From positions 60,365-124,364 of the forward strand of contig CAVTZU010000015.1 in the NCBI GenBank assembly GCA_963739305.1: DNA of 64,000 nucleotides, in the 5' to 3' direction. Shown here one piece after another: positions 18,076 through 63,482 of this stretch (position 1 is the first letter of the stretch; every line of letters begins with the position of its first letter). The notes beneath the pieces were generated by a model. The model saw nothing but the letters and a program-made list of their open reading frames with translations, did no database searches and was not told where the DNA came from. Made by a program: the position numbers and the translations under genes. This DNA comes from Candidatus Bathyarchaeota archaeon (lineage in GTDB: Archaea; Thermoproteota; Bathyarchaeia; Bathyarchaeales; Bathycorpusculaceae).

Positions 18076-18480
18076 TTAGCTTGTTTTTTTGATGATTAAG
18101 ATGGCTTCTTTGATGCCTTGGAAGTGGGGGTCGCCCGTCAGGATTTTTGTTCCAAGTTTTCTTGCTGTGGCCAGTACAAAGGCGTCAGCCAGTCCGAAGT
18201 CTTTCTTGTTTTTTCGCATTTCGGCATGGATTATTCCTGTTTGTTTTGACAATTCTTCGTCTACGTCGATGACGTCTGAGTTGCTGAGCAAAATTCGGTA
18301 TGCGGTGCACACGTCCTGTTTTTCACGGGCAATTTTGCTTATCACCTCTCCGAGCGTCACGGCGCTTGTGTAGATCCCGTTGTTTTCATCTTCAAGCATG
18401 GTCTTGACTTTCGCGCCGGTTTCGCTTCCGATCAGATATTCTATCCAGGCGTATGCGTCCACTACGTATTCGTTAGTCGT
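18076..18480 (-). CDS. vapC: VapC/PIN toxin
   Basis: YVVDAYAW, VTLGEV, FGLADA, ILTGDPHF; start uncertain (ACG 18480 or GTG 18462). Confidence 0.88.
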   Translation of the reverse strand, partial: TTNEYVVDAYAWIEYLIGSETGAKVKTMLEDENNGIYTSAVTLGEVISKIAREKQDVCTAYRILLSNSDVIDVDEELSKQTGIIHAEMRKNKKDFGLADAFVLATARKLGTKILTGDPHFQGIKEAILIIKKTS

Positions 18481-18667
18481 GCACGTTCAACTCGTCTTCT
18501 GCTGTGAAGGGTTTAAGTCGTCTGAATGTTCCGAACCCGTCTATTTTGACCTTTTTTACGCTAATCTCTATGAGTTCTCCTTCCTTGATTTTTTTGCTCT
18601 CGATGAGTTTCTTGGGTATTGTCACGACCAGGGAGCCGCCGACTCTTCGGGTTTTCGTTATACTCAT
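18473..18667 (-). CDS. AbrB/MazE-family antitoxin
   Basis: TRRVGGSLVVTIPK..IKEGE, directly upstream of vapC. Confidence 0.88.
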   Translation of the reverse strand: MSITKTRRVGGSLVVTIPKKLIESKKIKEGELIEISVKKVKIDGFGTFRRLKPFTAEDELNVHD

Positions 18668-18884
18668 GAAGTATCACTTATACATAACAAAAATAACACT
18701 AAAGTTACACTTAACTCTTACGGCACGGAAATCATCGTGCGGCCTCTGCAAGCACGACATTTTTCTATGGATAAATGGAGAGAATGTCCGCGCCGCGCGC
18801 GCTCAACATCCAAATCTGCAAAAAAACCATACGAAGAACCAAACCCAAATCTCTGCAAAAACCCATCGAAAGTTCTCTGTGCGA

Positions 18885-19216
18885 AAAAAGGGTAGGGGGT
18901 AGGGTGTTTTAGACTGTTTCTTAACCAAAATCCATGTTGACCAGTCCTTCACTGCGTATCGCGGGCGGTTTTTGTTTCCCCAGTAACCTAACACTCTGAC
19001 TTCATCGCATAAGAGCGGTGCGCTCCTCTAAGTCAAGCTCTCTCCGTAAGGGGAATATCATTTTTGCCCGCGCCCACCGTGTCCCACGCTTGGGTAAACC
19101 CAACATCACAGCAACAAGGCAAGCGGTCGAAGCTTGCCACCTCAGCTGAGTCCGTCTGCGTGAATGTGTCCGGCAGGATCCATCGAAGGCAACAAACGCT
19201 TCGGGCGTTCATCGCC
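18885..19216 (-). ncRNA. unassigned structured ncRNA candidate (~330 nt)
   Basis: TATA-like AAGGTTTAAC upstream, U-rich end, nested long helices whose G-U pairs favour the minus strand. Confidence 0.55.
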
Positions 19217-20958
19217 AAAACAAGACTGAATAGACTTGTAAAGTTAAACCTTCCTACACACCGCTCACTTATTCGCTTAAGCTCACCCAGCTTGCTCATG
19301 TTCAACTCAAGCCCAGCAACCGGATTCTCTAAACCCCACGATTGCAAAACCTTCGGATGAACCTCACCTATGACACCCACTTCCACTCCTTCAACGACAA
19401 CCGCACCGACCCTACCCTCAATAAAACTCGCATGCTTCGTCTCCTTAACCCGCCACTGTAAGCCAAGGTTACTCAACATCGCATCTAGGTCTGACTTGAC
19501 CTCAGTGAAACCCGCGTTAACGTGCGAGACCGCAGCCGCCAACACACTATCATCCCTCGTTCCCGTCTCAGCCGCTTTATCCAACACGGTCACTGAGCCT
19601 AACTCAAAAACCCTCTGCGGATACTCCACATGCAAATTACAGCTAAACAGCTCCATCAAACCAGGCAAGAGCCAACTCCGCAAACACGTCAACGTCTGAA
19701 CCTTCGGATTAGCCAACTCCACTACCCGCTGCTTTTTCAAGTTCATCTTGGCAAATAGGCTATCAGGATTCGTCAAACAATACGAGAGTACCTCCTGAAA
19801 ACCAAGCCCAACCATCAGCTCCCGAGCCACATCTAAAAACGCCTGTTCGGGTCTTGCTGCACCCGTCGTAGGCAACTTACGCCAAAACGGCTTCAGTTTA
19901 TTGTATCCGTACGCGATGGCCACGTCTTCAACCAAATCAACCTGATGCATAATATCAATCCGATAACAAGGAACCCGCAACGTTACCTTGTTCTTCTCAA
20001 CCTTCTCAACGCCATAACCTGCCTTCAACAGCAAATTAGCCATCGCTCTGGCCGACAACTCAAGATCCAGTATCCTGTTCGCATAAGCCACATCCAAAAC
20101 CGCACGGCTACTCTCAAAACTCGGAGTCATCTCCTCCACATCCTCCGCCTCATAATGAACCAAAGCACCATGCGCCTTACCACCACGATCAACCAAAGAC
20201 AACGTTACAATCTTCAACGTGTTCACCACAGTCTCATGAGACGTTCCCGTAACCTCAACCAAAACATTCCTCGTGTTCTCCGTGACTCTGCCCAGATCAT
20301 TCGAATTAATGATCGGTGGAAACGACAACACCTTCCGCTCACTGTCGAACAAAATCGGGTAAACAGGCTTCTCACTCACAATTGACCCGTACTCTATGCC
20401 TTTCGGGTGCTCCCGCAGAATCTCCTTCAGACTTAACTCTTTATCAAACCCTAATGGAACAAAACGAACCTCATTCGGCTTAGCGACGGTGTAGCTGAAC
20501 GGTTGCTTGATCAAGTCAAAATCGTAAAGCCCAATCGAAGCTCGACGCCGGTTCCTCCCATAAGTATGATCCAGCTTGTCTTGAAGCTGCATAACTCCGC
20601 GGATAACCGCATCCGTCAGCTTAACATCCTTAATCACCGAGCAAGCGATGTACGGCCTGATACTCTTCAGCCTCCCGTCAACGTGCACTTCAGCCAACGC
20701 TTTGCCAACGGCATAATGCTTCAACCCCTCTTCCAAACCCAAAAACCCACGAAGACACCGCACCAAACCCTCAACGTTCCACAAGTCCGCCCGGTTCGTA
20801 TCCTTGATCTCAACGCTCATCAAACCCGTCTTCTCATCAATCGCTTTCGTCTCACCCTTCGCAAAAGCCAAGACCTCGTTAACCTTATCCACATCCCGAT
20901 CTAACTCGATTCCAAGCAGCTTCACAAACTCATCAAAATCCAAGTCAATCGTCGGCAC
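19033..20958 (-). CDS. pheT: phenylalanine--tRNA ligase beta subunit (ORF runs ~80 codons past the expected end near 19270)
   Basis: DTNRADLWNVEG, GRNRRRASIGLYD, SFPPIINS, DLVEDVAIAYGYN, IGEVHP. Confidence 0.95.
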   Translation of the reverse strand: MPTIDLDFDEFVKLLGIELDRDVDKVNEVLAFAKGETKAIDEKTGLMSVEIKDTNRADLWNVEGLVRCLRGFLGLEEGLKHYAVGKALAEVHVDGRLKSIRPYIACSVIKDVKLTDAVIRGVMQLQDKLDHTYGRNRRRASIGLYDFDLIKQPFSYTVAKPNEVRFVPLGFDKELSLKEILREHPKGIEYGSIVSEKPVYPILFDSERKVLSFPPIINSNDLGRVTENTRNVLVEVTGTSHETVVNTLKIVTLSLVDRGGKAHGALVHYEAEDVEEMTPSFESSRAVLDVAYANRILDLELSARAMANLLLKAGYGVEKVEKNKVTLRVPCYRIDIMHQVDLVEDVAIAYGYNKLKPFWRKLPTTGAARPEQAFLDVARELMVGLGFQEVLSYCLTNPDSLFAKMNLKKQRVVELANPKVQTLTCLRSWLLPGLMELFSCNLHVEYPQRVFELGSVTVLDKAAETGTRDDSVLAAAVSHVNAGFTEVKSDLDAMLSNLGLQWRVKETKHASFIEGRVGAVVVEGVEVGVIGEVHPKVLQSWGLENPVAGLELNMSKLGELKRISERCVGRFNFTSLFSLVLAMNARSVCCLRWILPDTFTQTDSAEVASFDRLPCCCDVGFTQAWDTVGAGKNDIPLTERA

Positions 20959-20959
20959 A

Positions 20960-22471
20960 CTAAACAACCTCCTTGGTCCTCAACCACTGCAGATCCTTCG
21001 AAAACAAGTACCGAATATCATCCACCCCAGCCCGCATCATAAACAAACGATCAACACCCAAACCCCAAGCAATAACGGGCACCTTGATACCCAGCGGCAA
21101 CGTGACCTCAGGCCTGAAAATCCCCGAACCGCCAAACTCAATCCAGCCTACGCCCTTCATGTAAGCGCTAAGCTCAACGCTAGGCTCGGTAAACGGATAA
21201 TAATCCGGCTTCAACCTGACCTTCTCAGCACCCGCAAACTCCGTCGCAAACGTCATCAAAATCCCCAACAAATCTCGAAGGTTCAAACTCTCATCAACAA
21301 CGATGCCCTCAACCTGATTGAACTCGGTCAAATGCGTCTGGTCCAAAACATCCGGCCTGAAACACCGCGCAATCGAGAAATACCGACCTGGAACTTGCAA
21401 ATCCTTACTCACGAGGGTTCTCGCGCTAAGACAGGTGCCGTGCCCACGCAGGACCAAACGCTTAGCCTCATCAACCGAATACTTGTACCTCCAACCTGTC
21501 GAACCCGTGTTCCAACCGTTCTCATGCGTCTGCTTAACGTGCTCCAAAACCCGCTTGTCTACACCTAAACGGCCATGCTTCGGAGACTTAACGAAATAAA
21601 TGTCCATCGCCTCACGAGCCGGATGATCCTGCGGCGTGTAGAGCGCATCAAAATTGAAGAACGAAGTCTCAACATTCGTGCCCGTCATCTCCCTAAACCC
21701 GAGATTAATCAGCTTCTCCTTCACACCGTCAAGAAACCTTAGGTACGGATGCTTCTTCCCCGCCCAAGTCTTCGCAACCGGCGCCTCAATATTGTACTTC
21801 TGAAACTTGACACCCCGCCACTTTCCACTCACGATCAGATCCGGCGTCAACTGCGTCACCTCAACCGCAGCCTTCGCCTCCTTCTTCAACACCTCTTTAC
21901 CCAAAACGGTGATCTCGATTTCCCACCGAGCCTTCTCCTCAACTTCAAGCAGCTTTCTGCCTTTCAACAAACGAAAAGCATCCTGAAGCTCCCGACTCAA
22001 AGACCCAACCGTCACTTCCTTCCTCTCAGCAAGAAGCTTCACAAGCTTCTCATCATCTCCCGTACTAGGCTTCTCCTTCAACTGCAAAATGCCTGCTTTC
22101 GAATCTAGAACTGCCCACTTCTTCCTCTGAACCCAACCAAGCGCAATAGGCACCGTCTGCTTCCCAAGCCCAGCCTCACCGATCACCTTCTCAACGGAGC
22201 CTTTCCCGCCCAGCCGTTCCAATGCAGAAACCATCTGCCTCTCGGGCAAACCACACTTCGCATAAACCTGGCCCTCAGCGTTGAGCCTCAAAACCGTCGC
22301 TCTTTCCTCACGGATCGCCACAAGACCTTTTTCCTTCAGTGTCAAAGCCGAACGCATAACCGCGGCGTCTGAAAGCCCACTCTCATTCACCAAACGCTCA
22401 GCCGACGCCTTCCCGCCGAGACGCGACAACGTCGCCAGAGTCTTAAGCTCATACTGCCTCAGATCAACCAT
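20960..22471 (-). CDS. pheS: phenylalanine--tRNA ligase alpha subunit
   Basis: FNFDALYTPQDHPARE, HLTEFNQVEG, YPFTEPS, GSGIFRPE, AWGLGVDR. Confidence 0.97.
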   Translation of the reverse strand: MVDLRQYELKTLATLSRLGGKASAERLVNESGLSDAAVMRSALTLKEKGLVAIREERATVLRLNAEGQVYAKCGLPERQMVSALERLGGKGSVEKVIGEAGLGKQTVPIALGWVQRKKWAVLDSKAGILQLKEKPSTGDDEKLVKLLAERKEVTVGSLSRELQDAFRLLKGRKLLEVEEKARWEIEITVLGKEVLKKEAKAAVEVTQLTPDLIVSGKWRGVKFQKYNIEAPVAKTWAGKKHPYLRFLDGVKEKLINLGFREMTGTNVETSFFNFDALYTPQDHPAREAMDIYFVKSPKHGRLGVDKRVLEHVKQTHENGWNTGSTGWRYKYSVDEAKRLVLRGHGTCLSARTLVSKDLQVPGRYFSIARCFRPDVLDQTHLTEFNQVEGIVVDESLNLRDLLGILMTFATEFAGAEKVRLKPDYYPFTEPSVELSAYMKGVGWIEFGGSGIFRPEVTLPLGIKVPVIAWGLGVDRLFMMRAGVDDIRYLFSKDLQWLRTKEVV

Positions 22472-45581: not shown

Positions 45582-45901
45582 TGGCTGGCGAGTTGGTGTG
45601 TGGCTTTCGAGCCTTTGAATTGAAAGGCTTGAGGAAACTCCGCCCACGCGTAGAATTGCAGCGTTCGCAAGGGCGCAAGGTGAGAACCTTGGCTACGGAG
45701 CAGAAACGAAACGTCCATTCAGCAGGGGACGATGATGCATGTTAAGTTGCTGAGGATGCTGAGTGTGAAGCGGTGAAACGGCCGTCCTGCAAGTGGAAAG
45801 GGCAAACAGACGCTGATGACGTCTCTACCGGAAGCGCGGGTAGCCCGATTAGCCGAATGCCACAAAGAACAAAAGGCGGGTTACGACCAACACGCCAGCT
45901 A
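45582..45901 (+). ncRNA. rnpB: RNase P RNA
   Basis: P4 halves GAGGAAACTCCGCC and ACAAAAGGCGGGTTA; P1 TGGCTGGCG/CGCCAGCTA; GAAACGG motif; K-turn GATGA..CTGA. Confidence 0.92.
45882..45899 (+). repeat. attL, TACGACCAACACGCCAGC
   Basis: Identical to 56238-56255; lies in the rnpB 3' end. Confidence 0.85.
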
Positions 45902-63206: not shown

Positions 63207-63294
63207 TGGTGCGGGGGATGGGACTTGAACCCATGAACGCCTGCGCGACAAGGTCCTAAGCCTTGCTCCTTTGACCAAGCTCGGAAACCCCCGC
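63207..63294 (-). tRNA. tRNA-Leu(UAG)
   Basis: Cloverleaf with long variable arm, anticodon loop CTTAGGA, encoded CCA. Confidence 0.95.
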
Positions 63295-63405: not shown

Positions 63406-63482
63406 GCCTCGGTAGCCTAGCCCGGTGGGGCTCCGCCTTGGTAAGGCGGGGGTCGCGGGTTCGAATCCCGCCCGAGGCTCCA
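63406..63482 (+). tRNA. tRNA-Thr(GGU)
   Basis: Acceptor GCCTCGG/CCGAGGC, anticodon loop TTGGTAA, GTTCGAATC, CCA. Confidence 0.95.

Follow-up and report, generated by a model that had tools for sequence, protein, structure and literature searches.

A conserved RNA downstream of pheT in Bathyarchaeia is probably a two-hairpin box H/ACA guide

Introduction

HgcG, also called Pab40, Pf7 or Afu4, is described as a three-hairpin box H/ACA small RNA (sRNA) of Thermococcales and Archaeoglobus (PMC2377435). According to Muller et al. (2008), motif 3 of Pab40 guides the formation of pseudouridine 2016 in the 23S rRNA of P. abyssi, one of the two highly conserved pseudouridines in stem-loop 69 (PMC2377435). 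In Haloferax volcanii, the 5′ stem-loop of another sRNA, sR-h45, makes pseudouridine 2605, the third U of the UUU between helices H90 and H93, and its 3′ stem-loop makes pseudouridines 1940 and 1942 of helix 69, with UNUN unpaired in the pocket (PMC7075261). In Sulfolobus islandicus, the atypical H/ACA RNA sR148 guides modification of helix 69 at U2060 and U2066, six nucleotides (nt) apart (PMC11077068). In the present work we describe an RNA gene that lies right after pheT, the PheT gene, in a stretch of 64,000 nt of a Bathyarchaeial genome (GCA_963739305.1, contig CAVTZU010000015.1, positions 60,365–124,364, forward strand). The whole stretch is called the window, and its genome G000. The product of the locus is very probably a stand-alone guide sRNA of the box H/ACA type, with two hairpins.

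The published rules for archaeal H/ACA RNAs ask for a lower stem of 7–9 base pairs (bp) and an ACA box 14–16 nt from the top of the pocket (n+15±1), and place the G-A pairs of the kink-turn (K-turn) 9–10 layers above the pocket (PMC4652768, PMC7075261). ACA distances of up to 17–19 nt and extra unpaired nucleotides are reported to be productive when an ACA box is present (PMC7075261).

Results

The structured RNA is about 262 nt long and is encoded on the minus strand. A first-pass annotation of this DNA, made from the sequence alone, had proposed about 330 nt; the figure had to be shortened because the 3′ part proved to be a copy of a dispersed repeat, described below. Its boundaries can be placed only roughly, with the start predicted at GGCGAUGA or a few nt before it (about 19216–19220) and the last base a few nt beyond the terminal AUA (about 18955–18960). 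The TATA-like box that had been noticed upstream is kept in homologues, where (A)AYGTTTAAC stands at equal spacing from the sRNA in the aligned sequences. With its own TATA box, its homologues and the covariation given next, the gene retains the status first assigned to it, that of a free-standing, promoter-driven and conserved non-coding RNA. The features are listed in Table 1.

A 421-nt query matched 31 of 40 relatives at 70–78% DNA identity and, barring copies of the repeat, at one place per genome. Thirty-two full-length homologues were aligned, and a hand-curated structure of 44 pairs in 8 helices was drawn, with which RNAalifold agrees. The paired cells amounted to 95.0% over the 44 pairs, compared with 35.9–50.3% when the partners were slid, and double changes occurred at 17 pairs, compared with 1–6 for slid partners. 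None of 500 shuffles reached the observed values for pairing or double changes. The covariation check suggested with the first-pass annotation thus gave a strong result, and it bore out most of the helices that had been read from the single sequence, namely P2 (CCUGCCG/CGGUGGG), P3 (UUCACG/CGUGGG), P5 (CGCGGGC/GCCCGCG), P6 (UUCCCC/GGGGAA), P7 (UGACUU/AAGUCA) and P8 (GAGCG/CGCUC), together with a K-turn, GA/UGA. All seven pairs of P2 are formed in every sequence (100%), with double changes at two of them. A further proposed helix, UUGGG/CCCAA, was not kept: its two outer pairs form in one of the 32 sequences and there is no covariation. The covarying helix at that site is GGACUC/GGGUUU (family form GGACYY/RRGUUU). 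A wider alignment of 43 sequences showed double changes at 24 of 26 pairs, a value biased towards the structure as the alignment was model-fitted; within this set, P5 had double changes at six of its seven pairs, with 97.8% of cells paired.

The minimum free energy of a 341-nt stretch was −108.4 kcal/mol, compared with a shuffle mean of −105.97 kcal/mol (z = −0.43), and 35 of 100 shuffles folded equally well or better. Hence the description 'highly structured' has no thermodynamic counterpart and, the energy being within the range of the shuffles, thermodynamics alone is uninformative on the structure.

From 5′ to 3′, the sRNA consists of a 5′ hairpin, a first H/ACA unit enclosed by P2, a second unit enclosed by P5, and a terminal ANA. 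Its 5′ end reads GGCGAUGA, GGCAAUGA or UGCGAUGA in all 32 sequences. The 12-bp 5′ hairpin of the first-pass annotation holds for the window genome, where it is a plain hairpin, but not for most relatives, which carry a short kink-loop (K-loop) hairpin instead (GGC-GAU-GA...GA-GCC; GGCGAUGA...GAGCC). In three of 51 homologues (L014, L026 and L055) the 5′ K-loop hairpin is missing. An extra small hairpin lies between P2 and P3 in about one-third of the aligned homologues, and the K-turn hairpin of unit 1 varies in length from 5 to about 35 nt.

Each unit has its lower stem, pocket, upper stem with K-turn, and ACA box. In motif 1 all 32 sequences have a distance of exactly 13 nt between the start of the ACCCA guide and the ACA box, which places the first unpaired U at n+14. 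In motif 2 the box lies 16–17 nt past the first guide base, G, within the class, and 14 nt past it in homologues of other classes. The tandem GA/GA of the K-turn is present in 30 of the 32 sequences for hairpin 1 and in 19 for hairpin 2. The GA stem of hairpin 2 has 10 layers; a manual count for hairpin 1 gave 10 layers if two invariant G-U pairs are assigned to the pocket and 12 if they are assigned to the stem. The ACA placement in unit 1, the G-A pairs of the K-turns and GA stems of about 10 layers fit the published H/ACA rules, and the 16–17 nt of unit 2 can be set beside the 17–19 nt up to which activity is reported. The covarying lower stems, of 5–7 bp (P3) and 7 bp (P6), suit an expected length of about 5–9 bp. 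The pocket strands are nearly invariant across the class, with GAGAGAG in 28 of 32 sequences and UUACCCA and GACGG in all 32. The terminal ANA is likewise found in every sequence, as AAA (15), AUA (13) or ACA (4).

Table 1. Features of the sRNA locus, with coordinates in the window
Feature	Position	Strand	Remarks
sRNA gene	18955..19216	−	block kept in relatives; match to covariance model R1; RNA-library contigs
TATA-like box TTTAAC	19243..19248	−	about 27–30 nt upstream of the sRNA 5′ end
5′ hairpin	19188..19216	−	12 bp here; K-loop hairpin in most relatives
P2 clamp, 5′ strand	19171..19177	−	pairs with 19073–19079; encloses hairpin 1 and its ACA box
H/ACA motif 1	19083..19164	−	lower stem P3, pocket, upper stem P4, K-turn, apical hairpin
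Motif 1 lower stem P3	19159–19164 with 19083–19088	−	5–7 bp, covarying
Motif 1 pocket strands	19152–19158 (CAGACGG), 19089–19097 (UUACCCAAG)	−	
Motif 1 upper stem P4	19148–19153 with 19096–19101	−	
Motif 1 K-turn	GA at about 19141–19142, UGA at about 19104–19106	−	apical hairpin closes the unit
ACA box, motif 1	19080..19082	−	immediately 3′ of P3; 32/32 sequences
P2 clamp, 3′ strand	19073..19079	−	abuts P5 5′ strand with zero linker
P5 clamp, 5′ strand	19066..19072	−	pairs with 18960–18966; encloses hairpin 2 and its ACA box
H/ACA motif 2	18977..19054	−	P6, pocket, P7, K-turn, P8
Motif 2 lower stem P6	19048–19054 with 18977–18983	−	7 bp, covarying
Motif 2 pocket strands	19038–19047 (ACGGAGAGAG; also written ..GGAGAGAG), 18984–18993 (UGUUAGGUUA)	−	
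Motif 2 upper stem P7	19032–19037 with 18994–19000	−	
Motif 2 K-turn	19027–19031 and 19001–19008	−	
Motif 2 apical stem P8	19021–19026 with 19009–19017	−	
ACA box, motif 2	18973..18975	−	1 nt past P6; 32/32 sequences
P5 clamp, 3′ strand	18960..18966	−	covariation
Terminal ANA (AUA here)	18957..18959	−	directly 3′ of P5
Dispersed repeat, about 65 nt, outside the sRNA	18884..18948	−	27 genome copies; missing 3′ of the RNA in aligned relatives
pheT open frame	19033..20967	−	PheT-like part ends near 19270

The spread of the sRNA was counted with a covariance model, R1, built on the 3′ 139 positions of the sRNA, which matches the window at 18955–19104 with 120.7 bits. R1 found the sRNA in 131 of 151 sampled genomes of the class Bathyarchaeia, and in 84 of the 94 of high quality; 28 of the class-level matches span hairpin 2 only. 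All carrier genomes of the class but one have a single copy. Elsewhere in the phylum, matches were obtained in other classes (14 of 15 genomes in f44, 8 of 8 in f45, 3 of 3 in f56, and 2 of 2 each in f52 and f60), and the R1 search of f42 and f47 found no sRNA (0 of 13 in each). In distant genomes the match is mostly restricted to hairpin 2. When a 19-nt conserved block was compared with 185,579 species genomes, many of the contigs matched carried Bathyarchaeota or Bathyarchaeia in their titles, along with chance matches in GC-rich bacteria. A full-text literature search returned no paper joining Bathyarchaeota or Bathyarchaeia with H/ACA guides.

Pieces of the locus are present in public sequence libraries. 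Among the 20 listed runs with part of a 701-nt stretch, six were recorded as RNA. In four RNA runs from three studies, every piece fell within 18964–19206. Whole RNA-library contigs of 237, 219 and 198 nt were seen at 95–99% identity, the 237-nt contig being the sRNA stretch alone. One X18 contig has adapter-like loose letters right at 18965; at best these hint faintly that a fragment ended there. Short stand-alone contigs of the sRNA stretch in three studies fit an abundant small RNA.

Rfam gave no match to the sRNA when the whole window was searched at gathering thresholds, nor when 18600–19500 was searched at E ≤ 10, and in this respect the first-pass annotation, which knew no family for it, was right. 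The relationship came into view from the distant homologues. Six of 14 R1-found loci from other classes matched RF00064, HgcG (Pab40), with 25.3–30.5 bits and E-values of 2.7e-5 to 1.1e-3, at the same coordinates as their R1 matches. The alignment spans model positions 198–268, which is the third hairpin, with lower stem, pocket, K-turn GAUGA, UGUUA guide and ACA. The sRNA is related to the RF00064 family, yet not a member of it. The proposal of a novel class or domesticated ribozyme gives way before this contact with HgcG and the H/ACA architecture.

That the sRNA is neither signal recognition particle (SRP) RNA nor RNase P RNA was confirmed, as both are encoded elsewhere with full-length Rfam matches: RNase P RNA in the window at 45588–45895 on the plus strand (197.8 bits, with K-turn-like GAUGA elements), and SRP RNA on another contig, G000:C17 (168.8 bits). 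At E ≤ 10 the sRNA scores for neither in Rfam. Three further candidates were set aside. The S-domain of RNase P/MRP was considered on the strength of CR-II and CR-III motifs; J11/12 and J12/13 of the genome's own RNase P RNA differ, and no RNase P/MRP model scores. For a group I intron or derived ribozyme, no Intron_gpI match was found at E ≤ 10, and the 'P4-J4/5-like' domain is H/ACA hairpin 2. A T-box-like binder of tRNA with a double T-loop was considered for a resemblance only, and it was dropped once the H/ACA anatomy emerged.

We searched for targets of the two pockets in G000's own 16S and 23S rRNAs; positions are those of the G000 large-subunit (LSU) rRNA. In a relaxed scan that allowed up to three extra unpaired target nt and up to two unpaired guide nt, the two best sites for hairpin 2 were LSU 2041 (UAAC/UCUGA/CUCUCUC) and LSU 2047 (UCUGAC/UC/UCUC), both in the helix 69 region GGGAGUAACUCUGACUCUCUC. 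For hairpin 1, LSU 2712 (UGGGU/UUAGA/CCGUC) ranked first; it lies in the H90–H93 loop, within GGGUUUAGACCGUC / GCUGGGUUUAGACCGUCGUGAG. These best sites are the targets of sR-h45, in the same 5′-to-3′ order. Helix 69 and the H90–H93 loop are nearly invariant in nine genomes, the sole change being C or U at one position of helix 69.

It may be noted that the 23S and 16S genes of G000 are unlinked and lie on different contigs (C13:9660–12696 and C17:31979–33472, respectively). In a same-genus genome assembled as a single contig they are about 320 kb apart (G001:C1:1028718–1031758 and 707791–709284). In a genome of another class (locus L210, G216:C1:520423–525074) the 23S match falls into two pieces, with sequence other than helix 69 just upstream of the AAGGUAGCC anchor. 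This suggests an insertion, possibly an rRNA intron, at or beside helix 69.

The genome encodes gar1 (36.4 bits) and cbf5 (332.5 bits, in two adjacent frames). The two cbf5 frames, at G000:C26:41766–42739 (L211:1286–2259), are about 23 nt apart, with an insert at about L211:1478–1502 that has a small hairpin, and the break falls at the codon of a conserved motif (GHGGTLD/PKVTG). The insert resembles the short intron that cbf5 mRNAs of this phylum are known to carry. For Sulfolobus, two Cbf5 fragments encoded by exons are mentioned in the literature (PMC11077068).

The 3′ part of the RNA as first proposed, with a final GACUG...CAGUC stem and a U-run terminator, belongs to the dispersed repeat and is missing behind the sRNA in the relatives aligned. 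When a 346-nt stretch was compared with its own genome, 26 matches were found, and all except the self-match span only the last ~65–70 nt. The repeat has 27 copies in G000 by blastn, of 74–91% identity, each with a terminal run of 6–7 T; other copies are, for example, at C36:67733–67798 and C15:24675–24745. Its consensus is GGGMCUNNUCAACAUGG...UCUAAAACACCCUACCCCCC..UUUUUUU. Copies also occur in two same-genus genomes (G003 and G004), and the repeat has no Rfam match. In the relatives aligned, the conserved RNA passes directly into other sequence, often with a TTTTAA box, and no repeat follows it. The UAAGAAA-CAGUC motif, which had been likened to J8/7-P7 of group I introns, sits in this unrelated repeat as well. 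A same-strand open frame of at least 60 amino acids (aa) ends within 100 nt upstream of 16 of the 27 copies and within 400 nt of 25, counts that stand without a chance control. Such frames give the repeat the look of a gene-end or terminator-bearing element, and it may be a mobile terminator or 3′-end element. Downstream of the repeat, the minus strand of the window has two small frames of 64 aa and 128 aa (18076–18667). By eye, these look like an AbrB/SpoVT-type antitoxin and a PIN-domain toxin, in a putative vapBC-like pair.

In the window assembly, the pheT frame stays open for about 80 further codons, across the sRNA promoter and into the 5′ part of the sRNA gene, and ends at 19033. In all 62 relatives' loci with a PheT C-terminus, the pheT stop comes 6–27 codons past the residue aligned to 555, before the sRNA promoter; here it comes 89 codons past it. 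The read-through is thus unique to the G000 assembly (0 of 62 loci), and since the relatives' pheT stops early, the extension is not conserved as protein; its conservation had been named as a possible refutation of the RNA. The other two frames have stops at about 19265–19275. The extension is probably a frameshift (or an assembly error) or a lost stop. The order pheT-then-sRNA on the same strand is seen in many Bathyarchaeia families, with PheT identity down to 39% over the loci. The conserved block of the sRNA lies 129–290 nt past the pheT stop in 36 of the 62 loci and lies 456–3172 nt from pheT in eight. In some genomes (L014 and L150) a tRNA or other sequence stands upstream of the sRNA in place of pheT. 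The window also has two tRNA genes, at 63210–63294 on the minus strand and 63406–63479 on the plus strand.

Discussion

The best reading of these results is that the sRNA corresponds, in Bathyarchaeia, to sR-h45 and to motif 3 of Pab40, and is aimed at helix 69 and the H90–H93 loop of 23S rRNA. Its most likely role is to guide the conversion of uridine to pseudouridine at these two key places of the large rRNA. The kind of RNA is well known; the particular family is uncatalogued.

Transcription is from the gene's own TATA box, a short way past pheT, and the sRNA folds into the 5′ hairpin followed by two H/ACA units, each with lower stem, pseudouridylation pocket, K-turn upper stem and ACA box. 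It would serve as the RNA subunit of a Cbf5-Nop10-Gar1-L7Ae pseudouridine synthase, a ribonucleoprotein (RNP). L7Ae is expected to bind the K-turns, with three predicted sites in typical members of the family and two in G000, and the PUA domain of Cbf5 each lower stem with its ACA box, while the pocket strands would pair with 23S rRNA. Hairpin 1 (ACCCA, GACGG) is predicted to pair around the UUU of the H90–H93 loop, and hairpin 2 (GUUA(G), GAGAGAG) around the helix 69 loop. Several target nt would be left unpaired, so that one or more uridines there may be isomerised.

Several observations weigh against this assignment. The window copy itself has no Rfam match at E ≤ 10, and HgcG is reached only transitively, through distant homologues whose scores of about 30 bits fall short of the gathering score of 77. 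In the anatomy, the ACA distance of hairpin 2 is 16–17 nt, GG replaces GA on one strand of its K-turn in 13 of 32 sequences, and both ACA boxes sit in internal loops closed by clamp stems, with no free tail. As for the proteins, nop10 was not found in G000, a 97%-complete assembly, at E ≤ 0.001, and at E ≤ 5 only zinc-ribbon-like pieces of large frames appeared; 28 of 30 relatives carry the gene, among them all 10 from the genus. The RNA-library contigs prove neither transcription nor ends nor strand, and the lack of cover at 18700–18963 (repeat and intergenic sequence) and 19207–19400 (3′ part of pheT) carries no weight.

The target search offers the rest. A strict scan (7+7 and 6+5 nt, with only UN unpaired) gave no convincing site, the best reaching 11–12 of a possible 28. 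The energies of the relaxed scan were matched by shuffled guides in 136 of 300 cases for hairpin 2 and in 62 of 300 for hairpin 1, and the best pairings of both hairpins leave five target nt unpaired. Ten of the 32 sequences carry GAUAG in place of GUUAG as the 3′ guide of hairpin 2, which makes an A-A mismatch with helix 69; in G018, a genome with the GAUAG guide, helix 69 is unchanged. As the energies are not significant, it is homology and the match with published work, and not statistics, that support the assignment of targets.

The loose pairing is also what gives some room, though little, to another role within the H/ACA class. The sRNA might be mainly non-modifying, like the non-modifying H/ACA snoRNAs, and act as a chaperone of assembly by holding helix 69 and the H90–H93 loop of nascent 23S rRNA simultaneously; P2 and P5, as a rigid scaffold, would keep the two units in a set relative position. 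Guide–target pairings so atypical and no better than those of shuffles, the tolerated A-A mismatch, pocket strands almost invariant class-wide and the conserved clamps would all suit such a role, which we nevertheless regard as improbable. In Haloferax and Pyrococcus, related guides have been proven to modify the same two rRNA sites (PMC7075261, PMC2377435), atypical pairing with extra unpaired nt is documented as productive (PMC7075261), and the ACA spacing is compatible with catalysis.

Still harder to sustain is the view with which the first-pass annotation ended, that of a new L7Ae-binding RNP RNA or ribozyme whose function is unrelated to H/ACA guides. The absence of an Rfam match for the window copy agrees with it, as do three K-turn-type motifs, long invariant single-stranded stretches and the unusual clamp stems. 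The architectural hallmarks of H/ACA RNAs are, however, present twice, and distant homologues align to the H/ACA hairpin of HgcG. The group I-like motif is in the repeat, and no known ribozyme family scores at E ≤ 10. We therefore consider this view very unlikely.

Least probable of all is a cis-acting part of the pheT transcript (a 3′ untranslated region or attenuator) or a coding extension of PheT, to which the position directly after pheT in many Bathyarchaeia and the frame entering the sRNA in the window assembly might point, since the sRNA has its own conserved TATA box, lies far from pheT or behind other sequence at some loci, is read into by pheT in none of the relatives, and shows helix substitutions that are compensatory and not codon-like.

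The clamp stems around the units and the extra 5′ K-loop hairpin are unusual features that merit specialist attention. A speculative extension of the guide reading, to which we give limited weight, is that they mark a distinct 'clamped' H/ACA RNP architecture, kept across several classes of the phylum, in which an outer helix locks each unit and its ACA box in an internal loop. If this is true, the outer helices, stacked end to end, would form a rigid scaffold on which two Cbf5 modules and a third L7Ae site keep a fixed arrangement. The particle could then treat both target regions of a single nascent 23S rRNA, helix 69 and the peptidyl-transferase loop, together, and modify several neighbouring uridines via loose pockets; the design could even be an archaeal route to the obligate two-hairpin H/ACA snoRNPs of eukaryotes. 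The covarying clamps around the ACA boxes are also a testable oddity for the way the Cbf5 PUA domain reads lower stem and ACA.

An apparent 'orphan large ncRNA' is thereby assigned to known machinery. For Bathyarchaeia, a large uncultured group, this gives a class-wide, single-copy H/ACA guide family that was missed by Rfam and by genome annotation, and a covariance model made from the alignments would annotate it in hundreds of genomes.

How does the sRNA compare with known RNAs? Archaeal RNase P RNA and SRP RNA are similar to it in size, and K-turns to which L7Ae binds are found in RNase P RNA too. With HgcG motif 3, hairpin 2 has in common the lower stem, the (U)GUUA 3′ guide, the GAUGA K-turn and the ACA box. 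HgcG has three hairpins, whereas the sRNA has two, and the 5′ guide is GAGAGAG in the sRNA compared with GGGUUAG in the HgcG consensus, a difference that is in keeping with helix 69 itself, whose 3′ strand differs in this phylum. Sulfolobus sR148 comes from the same phylum, and its two sites in helix 69 are six nt apart, as are the two best registers of hairpin 2 (LSU 2041 and 2047). In terms of the S. islandicus numbering, these registers would sit 2 nt upstream of the sites reported there.

The closest likeness in layout is to sR-h45, which we compared by its description only. Both have two H/ACA stem-loops in one RNA of about 200 nt, K-turns in the upper stems and ACA or ANA boxes. In both, the 5′ unit is directed to the UUU loop between H90 and H93 and the 3′ unit to helix 69 with more than two target nt unpaired, as a prediction in the case of the sRNA. 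They differ in that a 56-nt spacer with an H box separates the stem-loops of sR-h45, whereas the clamp stems of the sRNA abut directly, and in the extra 5′ K-loop hairpin of the sRNA family. Next to the upper stem of hairpin 1 the sRNA has UU as its two guide bases; in sR-h45, two A's are paired to the first two U's of the target. The comparison suggests that one two-hairpin RNA guiding the pseudouridines of helix 69 and of H90–H93 is common to Halobacteria and Thermoproteota.

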